Shown: in pieces, positions 724 through 16,781 of the stretch | Layout of the letters: each line of letters starts with the position of its first letter | Position numbering within the stretch: position 1 is the first letter of the stretch | Source: a virus | Taxonomy: Duplodnaviria > Heunggongvirae > Uroviricota > Caudoviricetes | Strand: one strand, 5' to 3' | IMG/VR virus record: IMGVR_UViG_2671180568_000001 | Length of the DNA stretch: 34,764 nt | Made by a program: the position numbers and the translations under genes | The notes under the pieces: generated by a model | What the model saw: only the letters and a program-made list of their open reading frames with translations | What the model was told of the DNA's origin: nothing | Database searches by the model: none

Positions 724-735
724 GTTTGATACAAG

Positions 736-756
736 AAGGCCTGCAAAGCAGGCCTT
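736..756. terminator. hairpin AAGGCCTGC-AAA-GCAGGCCTT between convergent ORF1 and ogr; possible bidirectional terminator
   Basis: Perfect 9-bp inverted repeat with 3-nt loop, 13 nt after the ORF1 stop and 5 nt after the ogr stop; weak U-tract. Confidence 0.4.
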
Positions 757-760
757 TGAT

Positions 761-979
761 TTAAAGCCAGAGCTGATGTTGTTGGTATTTAGACGGGTGG
801 GGTGGGGCGGGTTCAATTTCTCCTGGCTTCACGATAAAACGAGCAAGGCTCTCGTGGGTGACGAAAGTGCAACCGCAGTTGATGTTCTGGCACTGGTGGT
901 AGCGCTCTTTCGTTTCAGTGCTCAGGTACCGGCTTGATCGTGCGTGTGCTGCATCCTGACATAGCGGACAGTGCATCAT
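761..979 (-). CDS. ogr: Ogr late-gene transcriptional activator (zinc finger)
   Basis: Translation MMHCPLCQDAAHARSSRYL...YHQCQNINCGCTF shows the four-Cys Ogr/Delta pattern; GGAGAGGG RBS before ATG at 979. The ORF-track 104-aa form is an upstream extension. Confidence 0.9.
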   Translation of the reverse strand: MMHCPLCQDAAHARSSRYLSTETKERYHQCQNINCGCTFVTHESLARFIVKPGEIEPAPPHPSKYQQHQLWL

Positions 980-1012
980 AATTTCTTCCCTCTCCTTGCT
1001 GACTTGAGGGGG

Positions 1013-1040
1013 ATAATAAACTTGAATCTTACATTTGCAA
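1013..1040 (-). promoter_or_regulatory. candidate sigma70 promoter for ogr (-35 TTGCAA, 16-bp spacer, -10 TATTAT on minus strand)
   Basis: Hexamers read directly from the sequence upstream of the ogr RBS; not experimentally supported. Confidence 0.3.
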
Positions 1041-1055
1041 GTTTTGTTTGTATAA

Positions 1056-2228
1056 TCAAGATTCGTCGGTGTCATATTCTACATCCGAAAGCATCACCTC
1101 AAGCTCTACAGCCGTTGTGAAGCCATTCCCACCGAGATTATGGGTCACCCTGCTGATTATCCATGCTTGCTCGTCTATAACGCTCTTAAAGCCTGAGACC
1201 CTGACCGGCGTTTCGGGGTAAATATCCTCGCGGCCGGTCGCTAACATAATGGAGAACTCCGCAACCCCACGCTGCAATTTATCCCACTTCGCCTGAGCTG
1301 CACGCATCGCTTGCGCCTTTGTCGCGTAAATGGTCGTCAGCGCGAAAACGTTGTCAGCCTCACCGGCCATGTATTCACCCTCGCGGGCTTCCTGCTCTTT
1401 TTGCTTTTTGGCCGTGACTTTACTGCTCACTGGTTTTGCTTTCGGGTGCTGTAGCGCCCGGAGGTGTTGCTCTTTGGGCTTACGTTTCAGCTTCACTGTC
1501 TGCTTTTGTTTCGCCGGTTTCGGGTCTTTAGTGTGCAGCCACTTAGCGGTTACGCCGGTGTAAGCGCCACGGTCGGCAATGGCAAACTGATGCCGGTCAC
1601 CGTCACCGCGCTGGATGGTAATTTGAGGAATAGCTTTTCCACTGGCAGTGGTACCGCTTCCCGCTTTGAGCATCAGCAATCTACCCGCTTTCACTGAGAC
1701 CGCACCGCCGTTGCGTTCTGCGAGGCGAGTCAGGAAAACGGCGTCGGATTCCTGAGACTGGTCGATATGCGGAATCTGGATCCCCGCAAGAGAATCAGTG
1801 ACGCTGGCCGTTAACTTGTTCCGCTCAGCTATCGAGCTGACGATTGCGCCGAGCGTGGTGTCATGCCATGACTCCTCACGACGGGAATTAAGCGTCCCGC
1901 GAAAATCCGCACCCCGGGCGCGAATGGTTACCGTATCCGGCGCCCCCCGGTGCTCTACCTCATCGACGGTAAATCGCCCCTTGCTGACCAGAGAGAAACC
2001 TTTCCACCCGAGATACAGCGACAGCACCGCACCGCGAATCGGCAATGCGACCAGACCGTCAGTATCGTCGAGCTCGATGTCGAGCTGGTCGGCCTCAAAA
2101 CCCCGATTGTCCGTCATCGAGAGGTTAATCAGCCGGTCACTGATATTGCCGGTGATATCTTTGCTTTCCAGTGTCAGCATAAAGTCGGGCGTCAGCGTGG
2201 CACCCGCGCCGGTGATAATATCCAGCAT
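1056..2228 (-). CDS. D: tail protein D (late control gene D)
   Basis: 390-aa ORF in the position and with the sequence character of P2 gpD, directly downstream of U. Confidence 0.9.
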   Translation of the reverse strand: MLDIITGAGATLTPDFMLTLESKDITGNISDRLINLSMTDNRGFEADQLDIELDDTDGLVALPIRGAVLSLYLGWKGFSLVSKGRFTVDEVEHRGAPDTVTIRARGADFRGTLNSRREESWHDTTLGAIVSSIAERNKLTASVTDSLAGIQIPHIDQSQESDAVFLTRLAERNGGAVSVKAGRLLMLKAGSGTTASGKAIPQITIQRGDGDRHQFAIADRGAYTGVTAKWLHTKDPKPAKQKQTVKLKRKPKEQHLRALQHPKAKPVSSKVTAKKQKEQEAREGEYMAGEADNVFALTTIYATKAQAMRAAQAKWDKLQRGVAEFSIMLATGREDIYPETPVRVSGFKSVIDEQAWIISRVTHNLGGNGFTTAVELEVMLSDVEYDTDES

Positions 2229-2230
2229 GA

Positions 2231-2695
2231 TTACGCCCCCACCATCGACAGCAGATCGCCAGCTTTCCCGACCAGACTTTCGGCCTGTTTTCCAATATCG
2301 CCATACACCGCGGCGAGCGACTCATCGACACGGGTCAGTGACAGGGTGAAGCTGATTTTTCGTGGCGTCCCATCCTCAAAAAATACCGTGCCGGTCTCCG
2401 AGACATTACTGACAACAAACATCCCGTAAATCCAGCCTGAGCCAGAGATAAGCGGCCATGCGCGCCCCTGTTCAGCCATTGCATAAAGCGCCAGCATCGT
2501 GAGCTTACCGCCGGTCAGCTCAGGATACAGGTCACCGCTCAGGGTGATTTTATCTTCCCCCTCGCCGAGATACTGAAAAGCGTCACGCTTCCCGATGCGA
2601 GAGTTTGACGCCCAGCTATAATCCGCGCTGCGCTGCATGCTCTGGTAGGGCAGCGTCTGACGCATAAAAACAAACATACCTAATGCCAGCATCAT
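2231..2695 (-). CDS. U: tail protein U
   Basis: 154-aa ORF between T and D, as in P2. Confidence 0.88.
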   Translation of the reverse strand: MMLALGMFVFMRQTLPYQSMQRSADYSWASNSRIGKRDAFQYLGEGEDKITLSGDLYPELTGGKLTMLALYAMAEQGRAWPLISGSGWIYGMFVVSNVSETGTVFFEDGTPRKISFTLSLTRVDESLAAVYGDIGKQAESLVGKAGDLLSMVGA

Positions 2696-2706
2696 AATCA
2701 GTCTCC

Positions 2707-5136
2707 TTAGTCATGCATCATGCTTGCGCGGGCTTTGGCGCGCTTCTCGCGCTCATACTTTTCTAATGCATCCTGCAAATCATTACCCAACCGATCTCCC
2801 GGCATACCATTGCCCGGCACGGTGATTTGATAGATTGGCCGACTCTGGTCGATGTAGGTTTTACCGGCGGGTGCCGTGACCGGCTGATAGCTGTTGTATG
2901 CGCTGATTGCCGGGCTGTAACCGTTCTGCGTCGCTGCATTGGCTTTCGCCGCTGTCTGGTCAAGTGAGCTGGATTCTTTGTTGATAATGCCGAGTTTTTC
3001 GAGCACCCAGTCAATCCCGCTTCGCAGCTTGTTAAAGGCGTTAAGCGGCATCAGCAGCGCATCGGCCAGCGTCTGACCGAACATAACCCCAACATCACGA
3101 CAACTGTTGAGCGTGTCCTGAGTCGCTTTCACCGGCGCTATCAGGTCTTTAAACCACTGCCAGACGCCGCGAAGTTTTTCGCCGAGACCGTCGAAAATGG
3201 GTGCCAGCGGGGCGAACATTTCCCCGACCGGCGCAAAGGCACTCATGAGCCCCTCGACCACACCGGCAAAGAATGCGCTGACAGGCTCCCAGTATTTACG
3301 GATAAGCAGCGCGCCAGCGACAACAGCCGCCGCTACCGCCACGACAGGCCACGTAATAGCACCAATAGCCGCAATGACCCCGCCACTGATTGTCGTAAAG
3401 ACCGCACCAAGCGCACCAGCCGCCGAAATGATGGCGTTAATGCCAGTAATTACCGGCCACGATACAAGGCCAATGGCACCAATCATCCCCACAATACCGA
3501 CAGCTGCCGCCGTAATGACACCCAGCGTGGTGGCAAGAGATTTGTTCTTTTGGATCCAGCTATCGAGCCTCAATACATACCCTGTCGTCGTTTGTACCAG
3601 CTTTCTTAATGATGACTCTTGCTGGTCAAACAGGTCGGTTCCTACCGCTTCATACGCAGACTGAAACTCTTTAAAATCGCCGCCGAGGTTATCCTGCATG
3701 ACCTTCACCAGCTCAGCGGTTTTGCCATCCGATGCTTTAAGGGAAGCGGTAAGCTGGTCTAATTTCCCGCTCGAGGCAGCGGTCATGAGTACCGCAGCCG
3801 ACGAGCTGGCCTCTTCACCGAAAATGGTTTTCATATATTCGGCACGCTGGCCGGTGCCGAGGTTGTTTTTATCAAAACTCCGCTGCATTTCTTTCAGGAT
3901 GGTAAATATTGGACGTGTGTTCCCCTTACCATCAGCCGTTTTGACGCCGAGCTCTTTAATGGCGTCATACGCTTTGCCCGTTGGAGCCTGCAGGCGACTT
4001 AATACGGCACGGCTCCCCGTACCCGCCATCGATCCCGTAATTTTGGCGTCATGCAGTGCGCCGACCATTGCGGCTGTTTCTTCGATGCTGACCCCGGCAT
4101 TTTTCGCCACCGGCGCGGCATAAGTCAGCGCATCACTCAGGCCGTCAAAGTCGGCGGCGGTTTTGTTCATCGTCATCGACAGAACATCACCGATATGGGC
4201 GACCTTATCGTTTGAAAGCTGGAAGGCAGAGCGCATCCCCATCAATAACCCGGCGTTCTCTTCCATCGTTCGACGGTTTGCGAGCGCCATATCGAGTGTT
4301 ACGGGGGTAGCGGCCTGAATAGCCGCAGCATCGCCGCCAGCCTTTGCAATAATAATCTGAGCACCGGCAGCATCATCAGCCGACGCGGCGGTGTTGTCAC
4401 CGAGCTGGCGCGCCTGTTTGCGGAGCGCCACCATATCAGCTGAGTCTTTACCGACACCGAGAACGGCCTGTAACTCAGAGTTTTTCTGAGCAAAATCATA
4501 ACCGGGCTTCATCAGTGCAACACCGGCAAGCGCTCCGGTCGTTGCCATGCCTATCCCGGCAGCGCCCATCGATGCCGCATTTCCAGCCAGTGCCTTTCCT
4601 GCCTGATAGCGTTTTTGTACTGCGCTGAGTTTTGCCTGTTGCGCGCTGACCCGCGCCAGTGCTTCATGCTGGCGGTTAAGTTGTGCGGTAGTTTCATTGA
4701 TAGAGTTTTTCAGGCGGCTTTCATCATTCGACAGATTGCGCGTATTAATCCCCGCTTTGCCGAGCTCGGTCTGTTGCCGCTTCACCGATTGGGTGAGGCT
4801 GTTATATTTTGCCTGTAACCCTTCAGCCGAACGCTTTGCTGATTCCAGCACTCTGGCCTGTGCCGCCGTTGGCCGTTCCGTGTTTTTAAACTGCACCGCC
4901 AGCTCGGCGGCTTCCTGTTTTGCCTTTTCCAGTGCCTGTCCGGTTACCGCCAGTTGTGCGCTGGTTTTGCGAAAACCGTCGATTTTCGATGCCTGACCAT
5001 TCAAATCACGCAGGGATTGCTGAGTCGTGCGGATATCGCCAGACAGCGATTTGCTCGCCGTCTGGATCGCTTTAAAGGGTCGGGTCGCCTGGTCGACAGC
5101 TTTCAGCAGCACTTCGAGTTTGAGGTTATTACTCAT
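2707..5136 (-). CDS. T: tail tape measure protein T
   Basis: 809-aa Ala/Gly/Gln-rich protein with coiled-coil N-terminus and hydrophobic Gly-rich segments, downstream of E/E'. Confidence 0.9.
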   Translation of the reverse strand: MSNNLKLEVLLKAVDQATRPFKAIQTASKSLSGDIRTTQQSLRDLNGQASKIDGFRKTSAQLAVTGQALEKAKQEAAELAVQFKNTERPTAAQARVLESAKRSAEGLQAKYNSLTQSVKRQQTELGKAGINTRNLSNDESRLKNSINETTAQLNRQHEALARVSAQQAKLSAVQKRYQAGKALAGNAASMGAAGIGMATTGALAGVALMKPGYDFAQKNSELQAVLGVGKDSADMVALRKQARQLGDNTAASADDAAGAQIIIAKAGGDAAAIQAATPVTLDMALANRRTMEENAGLLMGMRSAFQLSNDKVAHIGDVLSMTMNKTAADFDGLSDALTYAAPVAKNAGVSIEETAAMVGALHDAKITGSMAGTGSRAVLSRLQAPTGKAYDAIKELGVKTADGKGNTRPIFTILKEMQRSFDKNNLGTGQRAEYMKTIFGEEASSSAAVLMTAASSGKLDQLTASLKASDGKTAELVKVMQDNLGGDFKEFQSAYEAVGTDLFDQQESSLRKLVQTTTGYVLRLDSWIQKNKSLATTLGVITAAAVGIVGMIGAIGLVSWPVITGINAIISAAGALGAVFTTISGGVIAAIGAITWPVVAVAAAVVAGALLIRKYWEPVSAFFAGVVEGLMSAFAPVGEMFAPLAPIFDGLGEKLRGVWQWFKDLIAPVKATQDTLNSCRDVGVMFGQTLADALLMPLNAFNKLRSGIDWVLEKLGIINKESSSLDQTAAKANAATQNGYSPAISAYNSYQPVTAPAGKTYIDQSRPIYQITVPGNGMPGDRLGNDLQDALEKYEREKRAKARASMMHD

Positions 5137-5562
5137 TCGTGTTTCCGCTTCGCTGTAGCGCTTTTTCGCGCCAGTTGACGAGTTCGGTCAGGCTCATGGG
5201 ATACAGGTCTGATGGCGACCAGTGGAAAATTACCGCTATGTCAGCCATCAGGTCATCGACCGAGAGTTTTTGCGGGAAGGTTACGCCGCCTAACTCGGTG
5301 ACAAAAAACCGACCACCTTACCGGCAAACGACAGCAGGTCGGGCAGCTCCAGTGCGGCGGCTTCCTGCTCGGTCAGCGACGGCATGGTCATGCGCGGCAG
5401 CACTTTAATCAGCGCATCGACGTCAGAGTTTGCGACAGATGCCAGGCTGACACCGCGAAGGGTTCCGGCACACGGTTTTAACAGGGTGACGTCGGTAATA
5501 ACCTGCTCACCGCGCTTAATGGGTTTAATCAGAGTGACGATATTTTCGTTAGTTTTATCCAT
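5129..5562 (-). CDS. tail assembly chaperone E+E' made by programmed -1 frameshift at T_TTT_TTG (minus strand, plus coordinates 5302-5308)
   Basis: Heptamer is in zero-frame register GGT-TTT-TTG; the -1 frame hand-translated stays open to TAA at 5129-5131, overlapping the T start as in P2. Confidence 0.7.
5290..5562 (-). CDS. E: tail assembly chaperone E
   Basis: 90-aa ORF ending ...AGKVVGFLSPS upstream of T; carries the slippery heptamer near its 3' end. Confidence 0.85.
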   Translation of the reverse strand: MDKTNENIVTLIKPIKRGEQVITDVTLLKPCAGTLRGVSLASVANSDVDALIKVLPRMTMPSLTEQEAAALELPDLLSFAGKVVGFLSPS

Positions 5563-5624
5563 GATATTTCTCGTTAAATTCTGGTTTCAGGATGCCCGGC
5601 CAGCCATGCTGACCGGGGCATAAA

Positions 5625-6143
5625 TTACAGGCCGATATTTTGTCGGTGCGCCTCGAGCATGTCGGTGCCGTTCACTTTTTCGATGAGGTTCACGGTGTCG
5701 ATTTCCACCAGTTCCGAGCCATTCATCGTCAGCTTGAAATAGGTACACGCGAGAGCGATTTTCGACTCGGTGTCTTCGCCCTGTTTGGCTTCACCGAGGT
5801 CGATTTCTTTCTGACGGCCACGGAGAACAACCTCAACCGGCACGGTCTCGCCGGTGTCATCACGCTGGTAAGACCCGGCAAAACGTAGCGGTACGGAGGC
5901 CGCGCCGGTGGCAGCGTATAACGACCAGATAGCGTCATCGGGGAAGCCGCCGAGAGAGATTTCAGCCGACAGCGCATCGTCATCGAGGCCGAGGTCGACC
6001 GGTGCCGAACCATTCATCCCGCCGCCGCGATAGTTCTCGAGCTTGCGGGTTAATTTCGGCAGCGTGACGGACTGCACGACGCCGAGATAACTCACCCCAT
6101 CGATAAACAGGTTCATGAGTTTGAGCTTGCGCGGTAATGCCAT
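5625..6143 (-). CDS. FII: tail tube protein FII
   Basis: 172-aa ORF after FI, P2 gpFII-like. Confidence 0.9.
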   Translation of the reverse strand: MALPRKLKLMNLFIDGVSYLGVVQSVTLPKLTRKLENYRGGGMNGSAPVDLGLDDDALSAEISLGGFPDDAIWSLYAATGAASVPLRFAGSYQRDDTGETVPVEVVLRGRQKEIDLGEAKQGEDTESKIALACTYFKLTMNGSELVEIDTVNLIEKVNGTDMLEAHRQNIGL

Positions 6144-6155
6144 TTGTCAGGCTCC

Positions 6156-7343
6156 TTATTTGCTGTTGACGGACGAGATAAGATTCGCCAGATATTTATC
6201 AGTAATGCGCTGGCGTAAGGTCAGGTGTTCGAGTGGCGGCACCGGCGTATAGTCATAATCGATAAACAGTTTCCCGGCTTTCAGGGTTTCTTTACTGTTG
6301 GCCTCTTCGTCAAACCAGCACGTCGCATCGATGATGTAACCGCCGGTTTTCAGCTCGCGGAATTTCGCGTTGATGCCGTCGATAATGTCGCGAATCAACG
6401 TCGCGGTGATGGGCTTATCGTTCGCCCACATATGCCCCTCGGCTATTGTGTCGGCTATGACCTGTGCGGTGCGGGTGTAGTTCTCAAACTGAAACAGCGG
6501 GTCATCGGAGCAATTACGGTTACCCCAGAAGCGGAAACCATCGGCACGAATCAGCGTCGTAACACCGGCCTCATTCAGCAGGTCGGCATCAGTGCCAGAT
6601 TCCTGCAAATCCCAGAAGACCGACGCACTGATACCGGTGACGCCATTGATGCCGACGTTTGACAGGGTTTTATGCCAGCCTGTGTCATTGTCGATTTTTG
6701 CGCGCAGTCCCAACGCGATCGCTGTTGCATAACTGGTTGTGGTCGCGTTGGCCGTGGTATCCCACCCGAGGAAGTCAGGCCAGATAATCATGAGCTCACG
6801 GGCGCTGAAGTTTTCGCGGTAGGCGATAACGTCAGCAATGGTTTTACAGCCCCACGCGCTGACATAGGCGAAAGCGCGCAGCTTCTGAGCCACGGAGACA
6901 AGCGCGGTCGCCACCTCCTGAGTATCGAGCCCCGGCACACCGAGAATACGTGGCTTCACGCCGGTGACCGCTTTCGCCGTTAACAGCGCTTTCATCCCGG
7001 TATATTTGCCATTCTCATCCGTGGTGCCGATGATGTTAGAAATGGTTTGCGCCTGTGCCTCTTCGCCGTCGCCGGTACCCTCCGCGACACGCACAACAAC
7101 GACAACCGGTTTTGACTGGTTAGCGATGAGCTGTAAGGATTTTGCCAGGGTACCTTTAGTACCGGCTTTTGCGATGGCGCTTTGTGGGTTGGTAATCAGC
7201 ACCGGCTCATTGAGAGGGAAAGCCCCGGCGTCAGCATCACTGGCTGTGCAGACCATGCCAACGACCGCCGTTGATACCGTCGAGATTGTGCGGGTGCCGT
7301 CGTTAATTTCGACGACCTCGACACCGTGATGATAATCACTCAT
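6156..7343 (-). CDS. FI: contractile tail sheath protein FI
   Basis: 395-aa ORF starting MSDYHHGVEVVEINDGTRTIST, P2 gpFI-like. Confidence 0.92.
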   Translation of the reverse strand: MSDYHHGVEVVEINDGTRTISTVSTAVVGMVCTASDADAGAFPLNEPVLITNPQSAIAKAGTKGTLAKSLQLIANQSKPVVVVVRVAEGTGDGEEAQAQTISNIIGTTDENGKYTGMKALLTAKAVTGVKPRILGVPGLDTQEVATALVSVAQKLRAFAYVSAWGCKTIADVIAYRENFSARELMIIWPDFLGWDTTANATTTSYATAIALGLRAKIDNDTGWHKTLSNVGINGVTGISASVFWDLQESGTDADLLNEAGVTTLIRADGFRFWGNRNCSDDPLFQFENYTRTAQVIADTIAEGHMWANDKPITATLIRDIIDGINAKFRELKTGGYIIDATCWFDEEANSKETLKAGKLFIDYDYTPVPPLEHLTLRQRITDKYLANLISSVNSK

Positions 7344-7407
7344 CCGTTTAACTCCGTTAGTTGAGGTGAGTGATATTGTCTGGTTTACGCCTGTATGCGG
7401 CTATTTG

Positions 7408-7986
7408 TCAGGGTTCGCCGGTGGCTGACACAACGGGATTTGTCGCCGGAAATTTTTTATACAGCGTCGATATGCCCACATCAAAAATCAGTGCAACACG
7501 CTGTCGGGATTCTCCGGCCGCAATCAACCGGCCAGCCTGAGCCCATTCATCAGGCGTCAGCTTCGGCCTACGACCTCCGATCCTGCCTTGTGCCCGGGCT
7601 GCATCCAGCCCGGCGCGGGTTCGTTCGACGATTAACTCGCGTTCCATTTCTGCAAGAGCGCCCATGATGTGAAAGAAAAATCGCCCCATCGGGGTTGAGG
7701 TATCAATACTGTCGGTCAGGCTTCTGAAATTAACCCCTCGCTGGCGAAGCTCTTCAGTCATAGAGACAAGATGGCGCATGCTACGCCCGAGCCTGTCGAG
7801 CTTCCAGACAACGAGAGTATCACCGGCATTAAGTTGCCTGAGTGCGCGATTTAACCCTGGCCTGTTTGTCGATTTACCGCTGATTTTATCCTCGAAAATT
7901 AGCTCACATCCCGACCGTTCCAGCGCGTCACGCTGTAGCGCGGTATTTTGTTCATTTGTTGATACGCGCACATAGCCAACCTGCAT
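7408..7986 (-). CDS. serine recombinase, Hin/Gin/Cin/Pin-type DNA invertase
   Basis: N-terminus [13 protein letters not shown]... with catalytic-Ser context and a C-terminal HTH; GAGGG RBS before ATG at 7986 (ORF track uses an upstream TTG). Sits next to a hix-like site. Confidence 0.88.
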
Positions 7987-8040
7987 TTGTTTTCCCTCAT
8001 GCAAAAGCCCAAATGATGCCAGCTAGGGGGGAAAACTACA

Positions 8041-8066
8041 TTTTCTTAAACGTTGGTTTAGGAGAA
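8041..8066. other. hix/gix-like 26-bp crossover site (invertase-proximal): TTTTCTTAAACG-TT-GGTTTAGGAGAA
   Basis: Imperfect dyad of 12-bp half-sites around a central TT; the palindrome-arm identity begins exactly at the central dinucleotide (8053). Confidence 0.6.
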
Positions 8067-8405
8067 GCGGCTAAAAGGAATGTAGGGACAGGGGCAAATC
8101 AGATACCTGATATGGGTAGCTTCACGCTTTCTGTTTCAGGTACTGGATATCAAAAATTACCATCAGGTTTTATTCTTCAGTGGGGCTCAATCGGCGCACC
8201 AGGCATTGCACAGGATGTAGTAACCCATTTCCCGATTGCATTTCCAAACAGATGTCTGCGTGTTTTGGTCTCACAAGACTACACACCAGATAGCGGGGCT
8301 GTTGGTTATATTGCCTGTGCAGGTTTTAGTCCCGACCCGGTTAAATTTATATCCAGAGCCAGTACTCCTGGCCTCGGCGCTTCATTTTTAGCGTTAGGCT
8401 GTTAA
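8053..8405 (+). CDS. tail-fibre variable C-terminal cassette Hv1, promoterless mirror copy
   Basis: Encodes the same residues as the C-terminus of H (...[16 protein letters not shown]...LALGC); begins at the crossover site with no start codon of its own. Confidence 0.5.
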
Positions 8406-8426
8406 TTTAGCTATATGGAGTGAAAA

Positions 8427-8867
8427 ATGAATTACATATATTCCGTGACTACAAACTCTTTCTATCCGCTGGAGATGAAAGAGGATTACACTCAAGCTGA
8501 CTCATGGCCAGATGATGCTGTTGAAGTTGATGAGCAAGCGTATATTGAGTTTTCCGGATTACCGCCGAAAGGAAAAATCCGTATCGCTGGAGAAAATGGT
8601 TTTCCTGCATGGTCTGAAATTCCACCACCAACACATGAGGAACAGATTGCTGCAGCCGAACTGGAAAAGCAGCAACTGATTAATCAGGCCAACGATTATA
8701 TGAACAGTAAACAATGGCCTGGTAAAGCGGCTATTGGTCGCCTGAAAGGTGAGGAACTGGCGCAATATAATTTGTGGCTGGATTATCTGGACGCACTGGA
8801 ACTGGTCGATACCTCCAGTGCTCCAGATATTGAATGGCCTACGCCTCCGGCAGTTCAGGCCAGATGA
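8427..8867 (+). CDS. tail fibre assembly protein Tfa1, mirror copy
   Basis: 146-aa ORF identical in translation to 10936..11376. Confidence 0.55.
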   Translation: MNYIYSVTTNSFYPLEMKEDYTQADSWPDDAVEVDEQAYIEFSGLPPKGKIRIAGENGFPAWSEIPPPTHEEQIAAAELEKQQLINQANDYMNSKQWPGKAAIGRLKGEELAQYNLWLDYLDALELVDTSSAPDIEWPTPPAVQAR

Positions 8868-9441
8868 CATCCGGCGCGGTGCTGGTATCTGTTGCCGTCA
8901 CCGCGTCAATGTAATCCAGCACGGCGTTAAGTCGGGTTGTTTCTGCCTGCGTCAACTTCCGTCCGGCCTGTAATTTCAGCTGAATCAGACTAATGGAAGC
9001 CATTGCTGCATCAATCAGTGACTGGCGCTGTGCTTCTGCCGCGTCTACTGCGGCACTATGCTGTGCCTCAGTATCCGTCACCCATTTCTCACCATCCCAT
9101 TTATCATATGGCGTTAACGGGGCGATAGTGGTTGTATTTTCAGGGTAATCACCCGGAGCTGTGATTTCTTTCGATTCTCCTGTTTCGGTGCTATAGATGA
9201 TTTCACCGCGATGGTCTGGCACATATTCCCATGAGTTAAAATCTGCAGAACGGCAGATTGCATAACCAGCTTTATGTGTAACTGGTGCATCTAAACAAGA
9301 ACATGCCGGGATACCGACGCCAACCGCAAGATATTCAGTTGATGTGGAAATATATTCCCGCGTTTCACCATCATAATTATAAATGGTAATGTCTCCCGCT
9401 TTTATGGCAATGAGTTCGTTATTTAATACGGCTTTATTCAT
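8839..9441 (-). CDS. tail fibre assembly protein Tfa2, mirror copy
   Basis: 200-aa ORF identical in translation to 10362..10964. Confidence 0.55.
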   Translation of the reverse strand: MNKAVLNNELIAIKAGDITIYNYDGETREYISTSTEYLAVGVGIPACSCLDAPVTHKAGYAICRSADFNSWEYVPDHRGEIIYSTETGESKEITAPGDYPENTTTIAPLTPYDKWDGEKWVTDTEAQHSAAVDAAEAQRQSLIDAAMASISLIQLKLQAGRKLTQAETTRLNAVLDYIDAVTATDTSTAPDVIWPELPEA

Positions 9442-9891
9442 CAGGCAGCCCTCACGATATAATTAAAGGCAATGTTACGAGGTCGGTTTTCGTTTGCAGT
9501 TGGAACAACTCTGGAAGCATCGAATGTTACTCGCTTTGCATAACCACCTTTAATTGAATCAGATGAAGCATCTCCGATGACGCTGGTTGTAAAAACGCCA
9601 GAATCAGAAGGGTAGGTATTAAACCTGACATCCACTAATGCACCAATTATATTTCGAATGGCATCTCCCTGTGACGAAAGCAAGCTACGGTTAGTATCTA
9701 TTCCTCTTCCGTCATCCCAGCCACGAATGAACTCACCACGTAAATCAGGCAATTTATTTGTCGGGTAAGCCTTTGCCAGTTCCGGGTATTCTTCAGCAGA
9801 AAAAGCCGCACCGTTGCATTTCAGCCAGCCTGTTGGCGGAGTGGCGGAAGGCCACGGAACAGGCACACCAACGGGTAATGCCGAACCTTCT
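9441..9891 (-). CDS. alternative tail-fibre C-terminal cassette Hv2, mirror copy, running into the N gap
   Basis: Same protein as 9902..10362; ends ...RNIAFNYIVRAA. Confidence 0.45.
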
Positions 9892-9901
9892 NNNNNNNNN
9901 N
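9892..9901. other. run of 10 N (assembly gap) beside the palindrome axis
   Basis: Literal N characters; the mirror positions 9902-9911 read ttggtttggg. Confidence 0.99.
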
Positions 9902-10362
9902 TTGGTTTGGGAGAAGGTTCGGCATTACCCGTTGGTGTGCCTGTTCCGTGGCCTTCCGCCACTCCGCCAACAGGCTGGCTGAAATGCAACGGTGCGGCTT
10001 TTTCTGCTGAAGAATACCCGGAACTGGCAAAGGCTTACCCGACAAATAAATTGCCTGATTTACGTGGTGAGTTCATTCGTGGCTGGGATGACGGAAGAGG
10101 AATAGATACTAACCGTAGCTTGCTTTCGTCACAGGGAGATGCCATTCGAAATATAATTGGTGCATTAGTGGATGTCAGGTTTAATACCTACCCTTCTGAT
10201 TCTGGCGTTTTTACAACCAGCGTCATCGGAGATGCTTCATCTGATTCAATTAAAGGTGGTTATGCAAAGCGAGTAACATTCGATGCTTCCAGAGTTGTTC
10301 CAACTGCAAACGAAAACCGACCTCGTAACATTGCCTTTAATTATATCGTGAGGGCTGCCTGA
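9902..10362 (+). CDS. alternative tail-fibre C-terminal cassette Hv2 (receptor-binding tip, promoterless)
   Basis: Begins with the crossover-site peptide GLGE; the C-terminal NIAFNYIVRAA matches the conserved end of P2/Mu-type fibre tips as recalled. Confidence 0.55.
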
Positions 10363-10964
10363 TGAATAAAGCCGTATTAAATAACGAACTCATTGCCATA
10401 AAAGCGGGAGACATTACCATTTATAATTATGATGGTGAAACGCGGGAATATATTTCCACATCAACTGAATATCTTGCGGTTGGCGTCGGTATCCCGGCAT
10501 GTTCTTGTTTAGATGCACCAGTTACACATAAAGCTGGTTATGCAATCTGCCGTTCTGCAGATTTTAACTCATGGGAATATGTGCCAGACCATCGCGGTGA
10601 AATCATCTATAGCACCGAAACAGGAGAATCGAAAGAAATCACAGCTCCGGGTGATTACCCTGAAAATACAACCACTATCGCCCCGTTAACGCCATATGAT
10701 AAATGGGATGGTGAGAAATGGGTGACGGATACTGAGGCACAGCATAGTGCCGCAGTAGACGCGGCAGAAGCACAGCGCCAGTCACTGATTGATGCAGCAA
10801 TGGCTTCCATTAGTCTGATTCAGCTGAAATTACAGGCCGGACGGAAGTTGACGCAGGCAGAAACAACCCGACTTAACGCCGTGCTGGATTACATTGACGC
10901 GGTGACGGCAACAGATACCAGCACCGCGCCGGATGTCATCTGGCCTGAACTGCCGGAGGCGTAG
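10362..10964 (+). CDS. tail fibre assembly protein Tfa2, cognate chaperone of Hv2
   Basis: 200-aa ORF overlapping the Hv2 stop (ATGA); C-terminal ...APDVIWPELPEA typical of Tfa/gpG-like chaperones. Confidence 0.7.
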   Translation: MNKAVLNNELIAIKAGDITIYNYDGETREYISTSTEYLAVGVGIPACSCLDAPVTHKAGYAICRSADFNSWEYVPDHRGEIIYSTETGESKEITAPGDYPENTTTIAPLTPYDKWDGEKWVTDTEAQHSAAVDAAEAQRQSLIDAAMASISLIQLKLQAGRKLTQAETTRLNAVLDYIDAVTATDTSTAPDVIWPELPEA

Positions 10965-11376
10965 GCCATTCAATATCTGGAGCACTGGAGGTATCGACCA
11001 GTTCCAGTGCGTCCAGATAATCCAGCCACAAATTATATTGCGCCAGTTCCTCACCTTTCAGGCGACCAATAGCCGCTTTACCAGGCCATTGTTTACTGTT
11101 CATATAATCGTTGGCCTGATTAATCAGTTGCTGCTTTTCCAGTTCGGCTGCAGCAATCTGTTCCTCATGTGTTGGTGGTGGAATTTCAGACCATGCAGGA
11201 AAACCATTTTCTCCAGCGATACGGATTTTTCCTTTCGGCGGTAATCCGGAAAACTCAATATACGCTTGCTCATCAACTTCAACAGCATCATCTGGCCATG
11301 AGTCAGCTTGAGTGTAATCCTCTTTCATCTCCAGCGGATAGAAAGAGTTTGTAGTCACGGAATATATGTAATTCAT
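10936..11376 (-). CDS. tail fibre assembly protein Tfa1 (gpG-like), cognate chaperone of the expressed fibre
   Basis: 146-aa ORF directly downstream of H; C-terminal ...APDIEWPTPPAVQAR. Confidence 0.8.
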   Translation of the reverse strand: MNYIYSVTTNSFYPLEMKEDYTQADSWPDDAVEVDEQAYIEFSGLPPKGKIRIAGENGFPAWSEIPPPTHEEQIAAAELEKQQLINQANDYMNSKQWPGKAAIGRLKGEELAQYNLWLDYLDALELVDTSSAPDIEWPTPPAVQAR

Positions 11377-11397
11377 TTTTCACTCCATATAGCTAAA

Positions 11398-12357
11398 TTA
11401 ACAGCCTAACGCTAAAAATGAAGCGCCGAGGCCAGGAGTACTGGCTCTGGATATAAATTTAACCGGGTCGGGACTAAAACCTGCACAGGCAATATAACCA
11501 ACAGCCCCGCTATCTGGTGTGTAGTCTTGTGAGACCAAAACACGCAGACATCTGTTTGGAAATGCAATCGGGAAATGGGTTACTACATCCTGTGCAATGC
11601 CTGGTGCGCCGATTGAGCCCCACTGAAGAATAAAACCTGATGGTAATTTTTGATATCCAGTACCTGAAACAGAAAGCGTGAAGCTACCCATATCAGGTAT
11701 CTGATTTGCCCCTGTCCCTACATTCCTTTTAGCCGCTTCTCCTAAACCAAGGTTTTTGAGAACCTCAGCAACCAATCCGGCGTCGGCCATTTCTTTTAGT
11801 GCGTTCGCAATCAGCGGGTATTGCTTATGCGGGTTAGCCTTTGCCTCATGATCTTTCATGAGTTTGTCGGCGTAGCTCTTCACCTCGATGACTGCATCGT
11901 CGACATATTTACGGGTTGCCAGCACGACTGACGGGTCGATTTTTAAGGTGATCGCCGAAGTGCTCGAGACAACGAGAATCATGCGAATGGTCTGCGTTCG
12001 GCCGCTCCCCTCAGCCAGTAACGGTTTATAGGTTTCCGGGCAGTTGGCGACAGCAATCAGGATACCTTCATCATCGTAAAGACCGATTTCGCGGATAAAG
12101 AAACCGCCCTCGTTTTCCGGGATGATCTGCTCGGCAATAATCTGACCGGTGTCGTTAGCATCTACTGCCAGTGAATTTAGCAGCTCGCGGCGACGCTCGT
12201 TAATGAGCTTTGTCTGAGCCGGGTCAGGTGTCGGCAGTGTGCCGTTTCCGTCCCCGACGGCCATTTGTGTAATATTCAGTTTAGTACCGAGTGCGGTCGC
12301 GTTTGCCAGTCGCGCCGCGCCCTGATGGGTCAGAATGGCAAAATATTTAGTCGTCAT
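11398..12357 (-). CDS. H: tail fibre protein H (constant N-terminal part fused to cassette Hv1)
   Basis: 319-aa ORF with P2 gpH-like N-terminus ([22 protein letters not shown]...MAVGDGNG); its C-terminus is duplicated at 8053..8405. Confidence 0.85.
11737..11762. other. hix/gix-like 26-bp crossover site inside H (minus strand TTCTCAAAAACC-TT-GGTTTAGGAGAA)
   Basis: Dyad half-sites; encodes [10 protein letters not shown] at the constant/variable junction of H; the palindrome arm ends at its central dinucleotide (11750). Confidence 0.6.
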
Positions 12358-12965
12358 GCGCTTACTCGCAGGTTATCAATCAGATGAATGGCCGAAGCCG
12401 GACAAAACTCACCACCGACGACAATCTCCCCGGAGGCATAGGGATATACGGTTAACAGGTCGCCGTCGTAGCAGCTTGCGCCCACATAAGCGCGCCCGGT
12501 GGTGCTCAGGCTGATAGCGAGCCCGGTCAGGTGTCGGCTTGCCGGTTTTGCCCCTTCAATAAGGCGCTCGAGCTCGAGATACATCTCATCGGTGATGCCG
12601 GTCTCGAGTACGCCAACCACAAGCCGGAAAGTTCCCGGCTCTTCGTTGAGCTCCCACCACTCTTTAACCTCAATCAGATAGCCCAGCGGCTCCACCACGC
12701 GCCGTAATGCGGCGATGGTGCCTTTGTGGGCATGAACATAAAATGCGGAGGCGATAACGCTGCGTTTTGTGGCCTCCGGCCATCTCTCATCCCACCGGTC
12801 AACCGAAAATGCCCACGCCAGATACGGCAGCAGCCGCACCGGGCAAGTGCGCCAGTTCCACAACGTGCGAAGCGGTACCGGCACACGCTCAATATCTGCG
12901 GCCGCGCGGGCGGCGGCGACCTCGAGCAGCGATGAGCCAACAGGCAACAGTCGCTTATTACTCAT
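12354..12965 (-). CDS. I: baseplate assembly protein I
   Basis: Start chosen at [26 protein letters not shown] (ATG at 12965, overlapping the J stop); the ORF-track 244-aa form is an N-terminal extension. Confidence 0.85.
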
Positions 12966-13866
12966 CGGCCCCCCCGTCAGCGATGTGGTATTCGGTGCAA
13001 CAGGATGCCTGGTATTTACTGAGCACAATGTCAGCCAGTGGCGCGGCGAGTTCGACACGCTGCACACCTTCGACATGCAGGGCGGCATAGATGGCCGACT
13101 GACGAATGTCCCGGCCCAGTCGCTGTTGTGCGCTGATGTATGCCTTCAGTTTTTCCTCTGCGGCCTGACGGATTGGCTCGGCCTCCGGCCCCGGATAAAA
13201 ATACAGAGTTGCATCAATCTGATACGGCACGATTTCAGCACTCTGCACCGTCACCCTGTCGCCAACCGGGCGCACCTCTTCAGCATTTAGTGCTTTTTCA
13301 ACGATGGTCAGAAGCTCATCGGATGCGGTGCCGTCATCCTCGCGTGACAGCACGGTGATGGTCACACAGGCCGGTGACGGGCTGACAACCGAGATATCAG
13401 CGACCCGACCGTCGGCGCTGCGACCGTGGTATTCATATGCGCCGACCGGACCAGCCACGCTGAGCCCTTCATAAGCCTGTTGTGCGCGTAACCGTAAATC
13501 GGTATCAGATTCCATGACGGCGGGTGTCGGCGGGATAGTGCTGTCATCGGCGGGCGTCACAATCTGTCGCGCGGTGTTGTTGTTTCCGGCCATCACATCA
13601 AGGTCGTTATTACTCGCATAAGCCAGTGTGCAGCCTTTCGCCGCATCGTTTACACGCTGACGCCAGATAACCTCCCGATAGGCGTTTTCCTCCAGATACT
13701 TCACCAGTGGCTCAGACTCAAGGGCGAGAGTACGCGCAACAGCGTCCTGTTGTTCTTCAGGGTAAAGCGAGACCAGCGTCGCTTTGCGTTCCGCGAGAAT
13801 AGTCTCAAAATCCAGCGTTTCCACGACGTCAGGCGCGGGGAGCTGGCTCAGGTCGATGTTTGCCAT
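12958..13866 (-). CDS. J: baseplate assembly protein J
   Basis: 302-aa ORF MANIDLSQLPAPDVVETLDFETILAERKA..., P2 gpJ-like. Confidence 0.9.
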   Translation of the reverse strand: MANIDLSQLPAPDVVETLDFETILAERKATLVSLYPEEQQDAVARTLALESEPLVKYLEENAYREVIWRQRVNDAAKGCTLAYASNNDLDVMAGNNNTARQIVTPADDSTIPPTPAVMESDTDLRLRAQQAYEGLSVAGPVGAYEYHGRSADGRVADISVVSPSPACVTITVLSREDDGTASDELLTIVEKALNAEEVRPVGDRVTVQSAEIVPYQIDATLYFYPGPEAEPIRQAAEEKLKAYISAQQRLGRDIRQSAIYAALHVEGVQRVELAAPLADIVLSKYQASCCTEYHIADGGADE

Positions 13867-13870
13867 AAAT

Positions 13871-14218
13871 TCAACTCACAGGAATAGTCAGTGACAGGGT
13901 TTTGCCGGTGTCCCGGGTCTCGCCGGTCAGCTCAACAATCATCTGACCGTTAAACTGACGTTCTACCGTCAGCGAGCTGATGCTGATGCGCGGCTCCCAC
14001 TTCAGCAGCGCCATATAACAGGCGCACATAATTTGCAGTCTCAGCGCGTCGGTCTGCGGCATATCAATCAGGGAGAACAACAGCGAGCCATAATCGCGAC
14101 GCATCACGCGAGAGCCGACCGGCGTTCGCAAAATATCGCCACAGCTCTGACGGATGTGATCGGCGTCAGTGATGGCGCGCCCGGTCTCCCTGTTCATACC
14201 GATATAACGGGTCGTCAT
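13871..14218 (-). CDS. W: baseplate protein W (gp25-like)
   Basis: 115-aa ORF between V and J. Confidence 0.9.
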   Translation of the reverse strand: MTTRYIGMNRETGRAITDADHIRQSCGDILRTPVGSRVMRRDYGSLLFSLIDMPQTDALRLQIMCACYMALLKWEPRISISSLTVERQFNGQMIVELTGETRDTGKTLSLTIPVS

Positions 14219-14856
14219 TTCGTGCCCTCCGTCCAGGCTCCACCTCTTTGCACACCGCCGTGACCGTGGCTGTCGACCTGAACGCCGTTGGATTTAAACG
14301 TACCGTCGGTGTGTTCGATGTTTCCGCGCATGGTGCCGCCTTGTTGTACCTCAAGCGTCGCCGTCGTCAGTTTGTTGGTGCAGACCACTTCCGGTGTATC
14401 GAGGGTGATGCGGGTCTCGGCTTTCACCGTCACCAGCGGTACCGTCGCGGTGATGGAATCCGACGCCGTAACGTCTGCGGTTTTAATGCCGCTCACGGTC
14501 AGCGCGCCGGTCTCCGGCTCGTACTCGATAACAGCCCCATCAGGAAAGGTGATGTGAAAAGCATCAGCCGACGCCGACGGCGCGGGGTGGTCATCCGAAA
14601 AAATGCCGGGCAGCACAAAAGCGGTGTCGAGTTCACCACCCACGGCCAGCAGTAAAACCTGCTCGCCCACAGACGGAGCCCACCAGACACGTGAACGACC
14701 GGCGCGTGTGGTCAGCCACTGAAGCCAGTCGGTAACAATGCCGCCAGTCTGGACGCGACAGCGCCCGTCATCGAGGTCAACTTCGACGACGACGCCGGTA
14801 CGTATCAGGTTGCGAAGGAGGCGTAAAGCGTCCTGAAGAGTTGCGCGAGTATTCAT
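14215..14856 (-). CDS. V: baseplate spike/assembly protein V
   Basis: Start chosen at MNTRATLQDALRLLRNL (ATG at 14856); the upstream extension in the ORF track is rejected. Confidence 0.85.
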   Translation of the reverse strand: MNTRATLQDALRLLRNLIRTGVVVEVDLDDGRCRVQTGGIVTDWLQWLTTRAGRSRVWWAPSVGEQVLLLAVGGELDTAFVLPGIFSDDHPAPSASADAFHITFPDGAVIEYEPETGALTVSGIKTADVTASDSITATVPLVTVKAETRITLDTPEVVCTNKLTTATLEVQQGGTMRGNIEHTDGTFKSNGVQVDSHGHGGVQRGGAWTEGTK

Positions 14857-14932: not shown

Positions 14933-16276
14933 CTAGCTTGGGGTAACTGTAACCTGACGAGAAAAAACAACAGGCTCCTTCAATTGCTCACATATAATTT
15001 TAAAATTAATAACTCCAGAGCCAATCGTTAAGGGAATGATGACTATTTCCTCATACTCAACAGTTAAGCTCTGTAACACTTTTTTCGCACGCAACGTGAT
15101 TTTATGGTCCTCTTTCATGACCCACTCATCTTGGTTAACTGTTCCTAAATCAGCCATCCGTTTAATTATTGCTGGCACTTCGAAATGAGGTTTAGCCATT
15201 ACCATCGATGTATCATCAAAAATACCCATCCTAAAATTTTCGAGTGACATTATAGCACTGAGTCTTTTTTTATGCTTACTTATTGGGGACTCAGGGATTT
15301 TTAATTTCGGCTCTTTTATAAATAAGTCTTCATTAGAACCTTTAAGCACTATTAGGAATTCAGGAAAATCAATCTCAACATAAACATTTGACGCAAAAGT
15401 CCTCCCATTATTTCTTAAAACGGGCTTCACTGTAATTGCATTGTTTTTGTAATTACAGTGCAATCTCATTTTTTTATTATATAAATCCACATCTTTATCA
15501 GTAGGCAGTGAAGAGTTATATGATTCAATCTCATCAATGGTGATAGTGTCCTTCAACTCAAGAGGTACCGCTTCCTTGCATAGTTGTGGAAGGTAATCCT
15601 GATAAGTCGACTCCACATCCACCGTCAAAGCTAAGTCATTATCAATCATGCTCAGCTCTAATTGAGGTGCATCGCTATGTAATTGGCTTTCATATTCGCG
15701 GACTTTTTCCCTTAATTTTCTATTTTCATTAGATAGCTCAGCCAACTCGGCGGTAATCTCTTTAGATGCGACCTGGTCACCGCGCACCCATCCTATTCGT
15801 GGATTTCGTCGCATTACTTTTGGTAAGGCGATAGCAACCTTCGTCGCTAACTCATCAATTGTCTCCCAAAAATCACACATTTTGTTAGCTTTAGCTTTTT
15901 CAATAAAAGCATTTAGTTGCTTTTCTTTTTGAGGGTCACTTTCTCGTTCATGTGGTTTTGTTAAAACGTCCCTCCCTCTAATAAAAGCCAACACCGGTAT
16001 ATTTAATGATTTAGCATAGTTATATTCCATTTCAGTATAGCTAATACCATCTTTAGAAACGGACCCATACTTATGCCCAATGATAATCACATAATAATCA
16101 CTAGCATCAATAGTCTCCTTTATTATATCCCACTGCTCAGAGTCATCAGCGCTAAACATCTCCATGCCAACTGGAAAGTGGTATAAACTAAGGACCGTTT
16201 CTATGATTTTTTTGCGAGCATCAATTAAATCGACGTATGTAGAGCTCACAAATACTTGATATTTTTTATTTTCCAT
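14933..16276 (-). CDS. cargo protein with DUF4062-like N-terminal domain and uncharacterised C-terminal region; candidate single-gene defence factor
   Basis: AT-rich 447-aa ORF between S and V; N-terminal motifs YQVFVSSTYVDL..ARKK, HFPVGMEMF, YYVIIIGHKYGS as recalled for DUF4062; AGGA RBS before ATG at 16276. Confidence 0.75.
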   Translation of the reverse strand: MENKKYQVFVSSTYVDLIDARKKIIETVLSLYHFPVGMEMFSADDSEQWDIIKETIDASDYYVIIIGHKYGSVSKDGISYTEMEYNYAKSLNIPVLAFIRGRDVLTKPHERESDPQKEKQLNAFIEKAKANKMCDFWETIDELATKVAIALPKVMRRNPRIGWVRGDQVASKEITAELAELSNENRKLREKVREYESQLHSDAPQLELSMIDNDLALTVDVESTYQDYLPQLCKEAVPLELKDTITIDEIESYNSSLPTDKDVDLYNKKMRLHCNYKNNAITVKPVLRNNGRTFASNVYVEIDFPEFLIVLKGSNEDLFIKEPKLKIPESPISKHKKRLSAIMSLENFRMGIFDDTSMVMAKPHFEVPAIIKRMADLGTVNQDEWVMKEDHKITLRAKKVLQSLTVEYEEIVIIPLTIGSGVINFKIICEQLKEPVVFSRQVTVTPS

Positions 16277-16313
16277 AACATCCTCACTTGTATAGAAAAT
16301 AAAATACATAAAA

Positions 16314-16781
16314 TCAATCAATAGATCTAGCCGCCTCAGCTAAAGAAACCATAATTATGTCATGAATCATATTTTTTGATTCATGATCAAACCCGATAAG
16401 CATTCGGGCGTCATACTGTACCGGCGCACTGTTTCGCCCAGGCTTATCTTTGAGACCGTACTGATGCACATTCGCCATCCGTTGTACCTTGCCGGTAAAT
16501 TCCACGACCGCCGAGTCATTCCCCGCTGTGGCTTTCATAAAGCGACTGGTGCGGAGCTTAGCGAACATTTCCCGCTTAACCCGGCCTGTTTTGGCTTTTA
16601 CCGGCTGGCGTTTTCGGGCGGCGTAAGGTGTCCCGTCCGGGGCTTTCTGCATTTTAATCCGGCGCTGTTGACGGGCTCGCAGGGTCTTAGCGATATCTGC
16701 GGCCATTCTGCGACGGGCGGCAGGAGACAGCGCTGCTATCAGCCCCGTGAGCGTATCGTCAAAGGGTTTAAAGTCATTCAT
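16314..16781 (-). CDS. S: tail completion protein S
   Basis: 155-aa ORF downstream of R, P2 gpS-like. Confidence 0.85.
   Translation of the reverse strand: MNDFKPFDDTLTGLIAALSPAARRRMAADIAKTLRARQQRRIKMQKAPDGTPYAARKRQPVKAKTGRVKREMFAKLRTSRFMKATAGNDSAVVEFTGKVQRMANVHQYGLKDKPGRNSAPVQYDARMLIGFDHESKNMIHDIIMVSLAEAARSID

Follow-up and report, generated by a model that had tools for sequence, protein, structure and literature searches.

A tail-fibre inversion switch in a P2-like Escherichia coli prophage, probably doubled in a viral genome record by an assembly chimera

Main finding

The window analysed here is the whole 34,764-nucleotide stretch of IMG/VR record IMGVR_UViG_2671180568_000001. Its tail-fibre locus is best read as one ~1.85-kb Din-family invertible fibre segment in the G-FI slot of a P2-like Escherichia coli prophage, doubled in the record by an assembly chimera; we put the probability of this reading at about 0.93. 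The switch is an ordinary, already described kind of system and not a new one. In the proposed mechanism, a 192-aa serine invertase would pair both inverted 26-bp sites and cut the 2-bp core, after which the segment would turn by 180° and be religated; Fis would probably assist from an enhancer located at the 5′ end of the invertase gene. Each flip would swap H-Hv1 (319 aa) and Tfa146 for H-Hv2 (355 aa) and Tfa200, and one lysogen population would yield virions with either of two receptor-binding tips, with a likely effect of orientation on host range.

Location of the locus in a P2-like prophage

Domain searches and annotation place the locus in a P2-like E. coli prophage, flanked by FI on one side and I on the other. 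Domains, the ORF map and the annotation of strain 1190 agree on the tail order V-W-J-I-H-G ... FI-FII-E-T-U-D, with P2-type I, J and sheath genes (Pfam Tail_P2_I, Baseplate_J and sheath domains), I and J lying beyond H (Pfam/PHROG). The flanking genes are:

6156-7343, minus strand: tail sheath gene FI, invertase-side flank (Pfam Phage_sheath_1/1C and PHROG 23; annotated as tail sheath in strain 1190)
12354-12965, minus strand: baseplate gene I, H-side flank (Pfam Tail_P2_I, 7.4e-50; coordinates from the strain 1190 annotation, offset +5902)

A preliminary description of this locus had set an invertase between FI and the fibre genes, and this was borne out, the invertase ORF occupying 7408-8004 on the minus strand. 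The locus also takes up the slot between G and FI that was said to carry the Z/fun cargo in P2, a position in which invertases have been reported to be frequent. When three cargo sets were searched with PADLOC and Pfam, two returned no match of any kind; in the third, a 462-aa protein at 14933-16321 had a DUF4062 Pfam match only and no PADLOC match.

Invertase and candidate enhancer

Two features lie at the FI end of the locus:

7408-7986, minus strand: Din-family serine DNA invertase, 192 aa, start ATG at 7986 (Pfam Resolvase and HTH_7)
7897-7968, minus strand: candidate Fis-dependent recombinational enhancer, nt 19-90 of the invertase gene (homology to the P1 enhancer)

The ORF matches Pfam Resolvase (5.7e-51) as well as HTH_7, and both alignment with Gin and Cin and the RefSeq annotation set its start at ATG 7986, giving a protein of 192 rather than 198 residues (WP_001195984.1 in the closed genomes). 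Like other Din-family recombinases, it is ~190 aa long, with its catalytic domain, which contains Ser9, at the N-terminus and its HTH at the C-terminus. It aligns with the Gin structure 3UJ3 over residues 1-183 (1.2e-86) and is ~75% identical to Gin of Mu, 76.5% to Cin of P1, 79% to Fin of Fels-2 and 81% to PinE of e14. Ser9 (in YVRVST), D33 and D64/R65/R68 are kept, and M114 is wild-type. Transcription of the gene runs away from the invertible segment, as does that of Mu gin.

The candidate enhancer is identical to the annotated P1 enhancer (NC_005856, cin nt 19-90) at 59 of 72 nucleotides (82%), including the whole of its outer 23 nt and outer 17 nt, compared with 68.5% nucleotide identity for the invertase gene overall vs. 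cin; this conservation is partly due to the stretch also encoding the protein's most conserved residues. The homology suggests that the switch may be Fis-dependent. A sigma-70 promoter scan of the 54-bp spacer between invertase and segment (7987-8040) yielded no convincing invertase promoter.

Fibre gene, tips and chaperones

The fibre genes proper are as follows:

11398-12357, minus strand: tail fibre gene H in orientation A, 319 aa (Phage_tail_fib N-terminus, 1.1e-61; Gp53-like_C, 3.1e-14)
10936-11376, minus strand: Tfa146, chaperone paired with Hv1 (Caudo_TAP, 2.9e-38)
10362-10964, plus strand: Tfa200, chaperone paired with Hv2 (Caudo_TAP, 1.7e-32)
9902-10362, plus strand: Hv2 cassette, the silent alternative tip, 153 aa (Pfam Collar, 9.7e-16)

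In orientation A, H is identical to WP_000208951.1. It is short, with a swappable C-terminus as had been proposed: a constant part (aa 1-202; 11751-12357) is followed from codon 203 by the 117-aa Hv1 tip (aa 203-319; 11398-11750). The crossover core falls within codon 203 and, since the crossover site thus lies inside H, inversion exchanges the tip along with its chaperone. Flipping the segment in silico joins Hv2 to the constant part in a 355-aa H-Hv2 ORF that is the same as WP_071345229.1 of FORC 064. Closed genomes have both products, the 319-aa and the 355-aa in-frame fusion, among their annotated proteins.

Two unrelated tips, each followed by a distinct Tfa, had also been described, and the comparisons agree. 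Hv1 (117 aa) and Hv2 (153 aa, ending NIAFNYIVRAA) align with a BLASTP E value of 0.89. The two chaperone genes are convergent with a 29-nt overlap, and their products, both with a Caudo_TAP domain, have only the C-terminal ~72 aa in common, at 38% identity. Likeness to known fibre tips is at the domain level only: Hv1 shows weak similarity to R-type pyocin and AP22 gp53 fibre tips, and Hv2 matches a short tail fibre (9CUY) and T4 gp37 (2XGF) in the PDB. A sequence search of the PDB with Tfa200 gave no match.

Crossover sites and their exchange in closed genomes

An inverted pair of 26-bp sites bounds the segment. Each is organised as 12+2+12, with half-sites of imperfect dyad symmetry flanking a 2-bp core that both sites share (TT/AA). 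The 26-bp pattern matched twice in the window vs. 0 matches expected (100 shuffles), and the sites align with annotated P1 cixL, which has the same core, and with the Mu G boundaries. Four half-sites can be distinguished: a (invertase side), b (Hv2), c (Hv1) and d (H constant part). In the window they occur as:

8041-8066, plus strand: crossover site at the invertase end, half-sites a + c, the orientation B junction (TTTTCTTAAACG-TT-GGTTTAGGAGAA)
9902-9915, plus strand: core TT and Hv2-side half-site GGTTTGGGAGAA, the partner half-site being masked by an N run
11737-11762, plus strand: crossover site in H, codons ~199-207 (KNLGLGE), half-sites c + d, the orientation A junction (TTCTCCTAAACC-AA-GGTTTTTGAGAA)

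The invertase-end site is 54 bp upstream of the invertase start, and its junction is also found in FORC 064 (L003 6835-6860, reverse strand). In strain 1190, the full Hv2-side site reads TTTTCTTAAACG-TT-GGTTTGGGAGAA (L001 3988-4013).

Orientation A (H-Hv1) was reconstructed by joining window positions 1-8052 to 9902-end. The window minus 8053-9901 is identical at 10,898 of 10,898 positions to closed E. coli strain 1190, which is in this orientation. Orientation B (H-Hv2) was reconstructed from window positions 1-9891, CCCAAACC and 11749-end, and this combination of left arm and right flank occurs letter for letter in closed FORC 064. Two closed genomes, strains 1190 and PCN033, have orientation A at 100% identity and carry a.b + c.d; nine, FORC 064 and 8 others, have orientation B at an identity of at least 99.9% and carry a.c + b.d. 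Genomes of either orientation encode identical WP_ proteins. As read from these junctions, the two arrangements are the exact reciprocal product of a Din-family exchange at the core, and the exchange point coincides with the position at which the P1 cixL crossover is annotated. The proposal of a Mu G- or P1 C-type inversion switch on a P2-like tail is supported by every sequence-level test run. Many E. coli genomes have a 99.9% match at about 1.25 Mb; an assignment of these matches to e14 was rejected, and they proved to be the present P2-like prophage with its switch in the other orientation.

The orientations might instead record rare, old events in a prophage that no longer flips at a useful rate. 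The outcome of the promoter scan would fit such a history, as would the strong bias of the relative in E2348/69 (93% forward), but we consider it very unlikely. Genomes of orientations A and B are 99.9-100% identical over the switch and its flanks, which points to recent flips, and within the window each orientation is represented by a junction. The invertase ORF is intact and retains its catalytic residues, the two sites and the enhancer homologue are likewise intact, and the E2348/69 homologue flips in single-colony cultures.

The mirror copy as an assembly artefact

Positions 8041-9891 and 9912-11762 form an inverted repeat of 1851 nt that is 100% complementary, far beyond chance, with a run of 10 N (9892-9901) between the arms. 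Hv1, Tfa146, Tfa200 and Hv2 therefore each appear twice in 7408-12357, mirror-imaged:

8053-9901, no strand: artefactual mirror copy of the invertible segment and 10-N gap (inverted repeat of 9912-11762; single copy in closed genomes)
8053-8405, plus strand: mirror copy of Hv1
8427-8867, plus strand: mirror copy of Tfa146
8839-9441, minus strand: mirror copy of Tfa200
9441-9891, minus strand: mirror copy of Hv2

The window combines the a.c junction at 8041-8066 with the c.d junction at 11737-11762. These are incompatible on one molecule with a single copy of the segment, and the window is therefore an assembly chimera. Set against the closed genomes of the same prophage, in which the segment is present once, ~1849 of the 4950 bases of the interval are an artefactual second copy and the true locus measures ~3.1 kb. 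The preliminary description thus named genes that are all present, but passed over the inverted repeat. The chimeric junctions indirectly suggest that both orientations were together in the sequenced material, the point on which the preliminary description had called for a check. Because the reads would have contained both, the assembler probably built the segment in one orientation from one flank and in the other orientation from the other flank, leaving an apparent 3.7-kb palindrome around 10 N. The left arm ends exactly 10 nt before the core, and the gap of 10 N has exactly this length, an agreement that may reflect a mask or a conventional minimum gap.

Taken as given, the window reads as a real 3.7-kb palindrome, with two mirror-image cassette sets arising by inverted duplication around the Hv2-side site, and the 10 N correspond to exactly the 10 nt (CCCAAACCAA) that would complete it perfectly. 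We regard a real palindrome as extremely improbable. Its centre consists of N, that is, of undetermined sequence, and the implied centre, b-AATT-b′, would place a 4-nt core between two identical half-sites, which is not a legal recombination product, a and d being the only partners to which a Din invertase joins b. The palindrome is absent both from the closed genomes of the same prophage, all of which have a single copy, and from a related IMG/VR contig, and the 100% identity of the arms is as expected from the same reads used twice. Long perfect palindromes of this kind are, moreover, unstable in E. coli (SbcCD). An in-vivo origin by aberrant religation by the invertase was considered and rejected, as the overhangs of the b half-sites are identical and non-complementary and the core is 4 nt rather than 2 nt.

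The related contig (L008), the one IMG/VR match to the junction pattern of orientation B, is 95-99% identical, has its segment in that same orientation and lacks the palindrome. Exact-pattern scans for an N-centred palindrome across genome contigs and viral contigs gave no match. With the palindrome attributed to assembly, ~1.85 kb of the interval is a duplicate that the genome itself lacks, and gene counts, repeat calls or readings of “four cassettes” taken from the window would be wrong. In draft assemblies, actively flipping invertons may be recognisable by such a pattern, a perfect palindrome with a short run of N at its centre and a 26-bp Din site at either end.

Relation to known inversion systems

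The biological addition is small: both Fels-2 and E. coli prophages already provide documented cases of invertase-driven fibre switching among P2-like phages, and flipping has been demonstrated for a segment almost identical to the present one. Fels-2 (Felsduovirus, Peduoviridae; fin) has the same gene order, J-I-H-G-G′(inverted)-H′(inverted)-invertase-FI-FII, and a site of the same architecture (TTCGCCTAAACC-GA-GGTTTATGAAAA), and its segment is inverted between LT2 and LT7 (PMC7953296). Its H is longer (1575 nt vs. 960/1068 nt here), and its tips, chaperones and host genus differ from those of the present prophage.

A close relative is the P2-like inverton of EPEC E2348/69 (NC_011601.1 2977580-2979467), with 97.2% nucleotide identity over 93% of window positions 6900-9891, a stretch that spans the invertase, Hv1, both Tfa genes and Hv2. 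This “P2” inverton is phase-variable, 93 ± 4% forward (Table S1, Goldberg et al. 2014; PMC4272514), and its flipping was shown by sequencing single-colony cultures (PMC4272514). The E2348/69 prophage is truncated on the H side, where an integrase fragment replaces the H constant part, so that copy is unable to make a full fibre.

The e14 P segment of E. coli K-12 (1797 bp vs. ~1850 bp here) shares several parts with the present one: TfaE is 93% identical to Tfa200, and the StfE collar is identical to Hv2 over the first ~80 aa, whereas the distal StfE tip differs from Hv2. e14 is a defective lambdoid element, and its StfP/TfaP cassette differs from Hv1/Tfa146. PinQ-driven inversion of this P segment is reported to produce StfE2, which blocks adsorption by receptor masking (PMC12529663). 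By analogy, the present switch could, in the lysogen, act beyond host range as a recombinase-activated adsorption block against other phages, an H chimera with a StfE-like collar and TfaE-like chaperone masking an outer-membrane receptor, though we consider this very unlikely. Similarly unlikely is the reading in which the host is the main beneficiary of the switch in a lysogen, with one of the fibre chimeras masking receptors and so blocking adsorption of other phages. The Tfa200, Hv2 collar and invertase (81% to PinE) similarities to e14 and the published PinQ/StfE2 mechanism speak for it; but the prophage is a seemingly complete P2-like one with H in the late tail operon, where expression in the lysogen is not expected, and the distal, receptor-facing part of Hv2 is unlike StfE.

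The Mu G segment has the order Sc-Sv-U-U′-Sv′-gin, and its gix sites have the same 12+2+12 architecture; it differs in its size (~3 kb), its Mu-type tail and its tips. In the P1 C segment, cixL (CAATCCTAAACC-TT-GGTTTAAGAGAA) shares the TT core of the present sites, but that segment measures 4.2 kb, cin reads toward it and cixL overlaps the 3′ end of cin.

Genes of the fibre locus

ORFs were listed across window positions 5500-14500, with identities checked against Pfam and PHROGs. The fibre locus contains the following genes:

7408-8004 (-): invertase ORF, 198 aa; Pfam Resolvase and HTH_7
11398-12357 (-): tail fibre H, 319 aa; N-terminus Phage_tail_fib, tip Gp53-like_C
Chaperone-like ORFs Tfa146 (146 aa) and Tfa200 (200 aa): both Caudo_TAP
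Hv2 tip ORF: Collar domain, C-terminal end NIAFNYIVRAA
Flanks: sheath gene FI; P2-type I and J (Pfam/PHROGs)

All genes named in the preliminary description were found, but it had missed the mirror-image doubling of the cassettes: Hv1, Tfa146, Tfa200 and Hv2 (the alternative H tips and their paired chaperones) each occur in two mirror-image copies within the interval. The tips are unrelated, as it had stated (tip-to-tip comparison, E = 0.89), and each does have a distinct chaperone, the likeness between Tfa146 and Tfa200 being confined to the C-terminal ~72 residues. Tfa200 (+) and Tfa146 (-) are convergent, with a 29-nt overlap of their 3′ ends at 10936-10964, where the conserved C-terminal ‘WP..P’ motifs lie on the two strands of a single stretch of DNA.

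The Hv1 tip is of the gp53-like type, with weak similarity to R-type pyocin fibre tips; the Hv2 tip has a collar domain and resembles T4 gp37 and a short tail fibre. The first ~80 residues of Hv2 are identical to e14 StfE, whereas the distal part differs; Hv2 is, judged by its sequence, a mosaic of e14 StfE.

The window joins two orientations of one segment

A repeat finder returned an inverted repeat (8041-9891 / 9912-11762) with arms of 1851 nt, 100% complementary, enclosing 10 consecutive N (9892-9901). Ten is the exact count of bases (CCCAAACCAA) that completes a perfect palindrome over 8041-11762, and the run may be a mask, or a scaffold gap of conventional minimum size. The left arm ends 10 nt before the crossover core is reached; the right arm begins exactly at the core.

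The right arm and its flank (9903-12800) match two closed E. coli chromosomes, strain 1190 and PCN033, at 100%. Their annotation has one cassette set, in the order sheath, recombinase, silent Hv2 ORF (+), Tfa200 (+), Tfa146 (-), H of 319 aa (-), I and J (orientation A). The left arm and its flank (6900-9891) match nine other closed genomes, including FORC 064, at 99.9-100%; these encode the same WP_ proteins but carry the segment in the opposite orientation, their H being a 355-aa H-Hv2 fusion (orientation B).

The window contains two full 26-bp crossover sites where chance predicts 0; they share their 12+2+12 layout with the Mu G boundaries and with the cixL site annotated in P1. Their half-sites are as follows:

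a, invertase side: TTTTCTTAAACG
b, Hv2 side: TTCTCCCAAACC
c, Hv1 side: TTCTCCTAAACC
d, H constant part: TTCTCAAAAACC

Orientation A genomes pair a.b and c.d, and orientation B genomes a.c and b.d; in sequence terms, this is what a serine invertase should yield by reciprocal exchange at the 2-bp core. The window's own junctions are a.c (left) and c.d (right), a combination impossible on one molecule with a single segment copy, so the assembled material must have held both orientations.

Removal of 8053-9901 makes the window identical to strain 1190 at 10,898/10,898 bases; the left arm, the missing 8 nt and the right flank together form an exact substring of FORC 064; and flipping the H ORF in silico yields exactly the protein annotated in FORC 064. 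Because these three exact checks agree, the window is, on these comparisons, a chimera of both orientations of one ~1.85-kb segment. A genuine palindrome in the genome is very unlikely: its implied centre, b-AATT-b′, does not correspond to any legal product of recombination, every closed genome compared holds the segment once, and long palindromes are unstable. A fossil switch is also unlikely, given an intact machinery and the sequence identity of orientation A and B genomes.

The inversion switch and its invertase

The interpretation as an inversion switch, already put forward in the preliminary description, is supported by the sites, a swap that keeps the reading frame at codon 203, the pairing of chaperones with tips and the occurrence of both orientations in nature, all evident at the sequence level. 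Inversion would proceed through Fis-assisted synapsis of the sites and 180-degree subunit rotation, and exchange of Hv1 for Hv2 would alter host range.

Gin crystal-structure sequences align with the invertase from one end to the other (1.2e-86); its identity is 81% with PinE, 79% with Fels-2 Fin, 76.5% with Cin and ~75% with Gin. Ser9 is present within YVRVST, as are D33, D64, R65 and R68, which we take to be the catalytic set by Tn3 and gamma-delta resolvase. The position changed to Val in Gin construct 3UJ3 is Met, presumably the wild-type, Fis-dependent state. Within the gene, nucleotides 19-90 (window 7897-7968) match the annotated P1 enhancer at 59/72, vs. 68.5% whole-gene identity to the P1 counterpart, with the outer 23 and 17 nt identical; this stretch also encodes conserved residues, which may account for part of the match. 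A sigma-70 promoter scan of the 54-bp spacer next to the invertase gave no clear candidate. Close homologues of the invertase are encoded in 112 phage records, including P2-like pro483, S164, Cartapus and SEN8.

Known relatives

The fibre switch is an already known system; the present review adds the assembly artefact. Fels-2 has the same order (J-I-H-G-G′-H′-invertase-FI), and LT2 and LT7 carry its fibre region in opposite orientations (PMC7953296). Invertases are frequent in the P2 Z/fun hotspot (2024 preprint). A 97%-identical copy lies inside a truncated P2-like prophage of E2348/69, at the coordinates of a phase-variable inverton, 93 ± 4% forward (Goldberg et al. 2014, Table S1, PMC4272514). 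There, an integrase pseudogene replaces the H constant part (locus L004, 6028-6378, NC_011601.1); inverton and invertase are retained despite the truncation, and the segment still flips, although a full fibre is impossible. A role in host defence, for which PinQ/StfE2 is a precedent (PMC12529663), is unlikely here.

Other cargo

A low-GC island (34-41% vs. ~56% around) separates baseplate gene V from the tail completion genes and encodes a 462-aa DUF4062-domain protein (14933-16321, -); the protein had no PADLOC match, and its gene is found at this position in strains 1190, PCN033 and FORC 064 as well. At the classical P2 old/tin cargo hotspot, with portal gene Q on one side and replication gene A on the other, a 30-33% GC island contains two adjacent ORFs of 228 and 327 aa (25146-26812, -; 4-nt overlap). 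Since neither has a Pfam or PADLOC match, they are a candidate undescribed defence pair. A 309-aa ORF just past the prophage integrase (33150-34079, +; 36-37% GC), likewise with no Pfam or PADLOC match, may be cargo or host sequence adjoining the attachment site.
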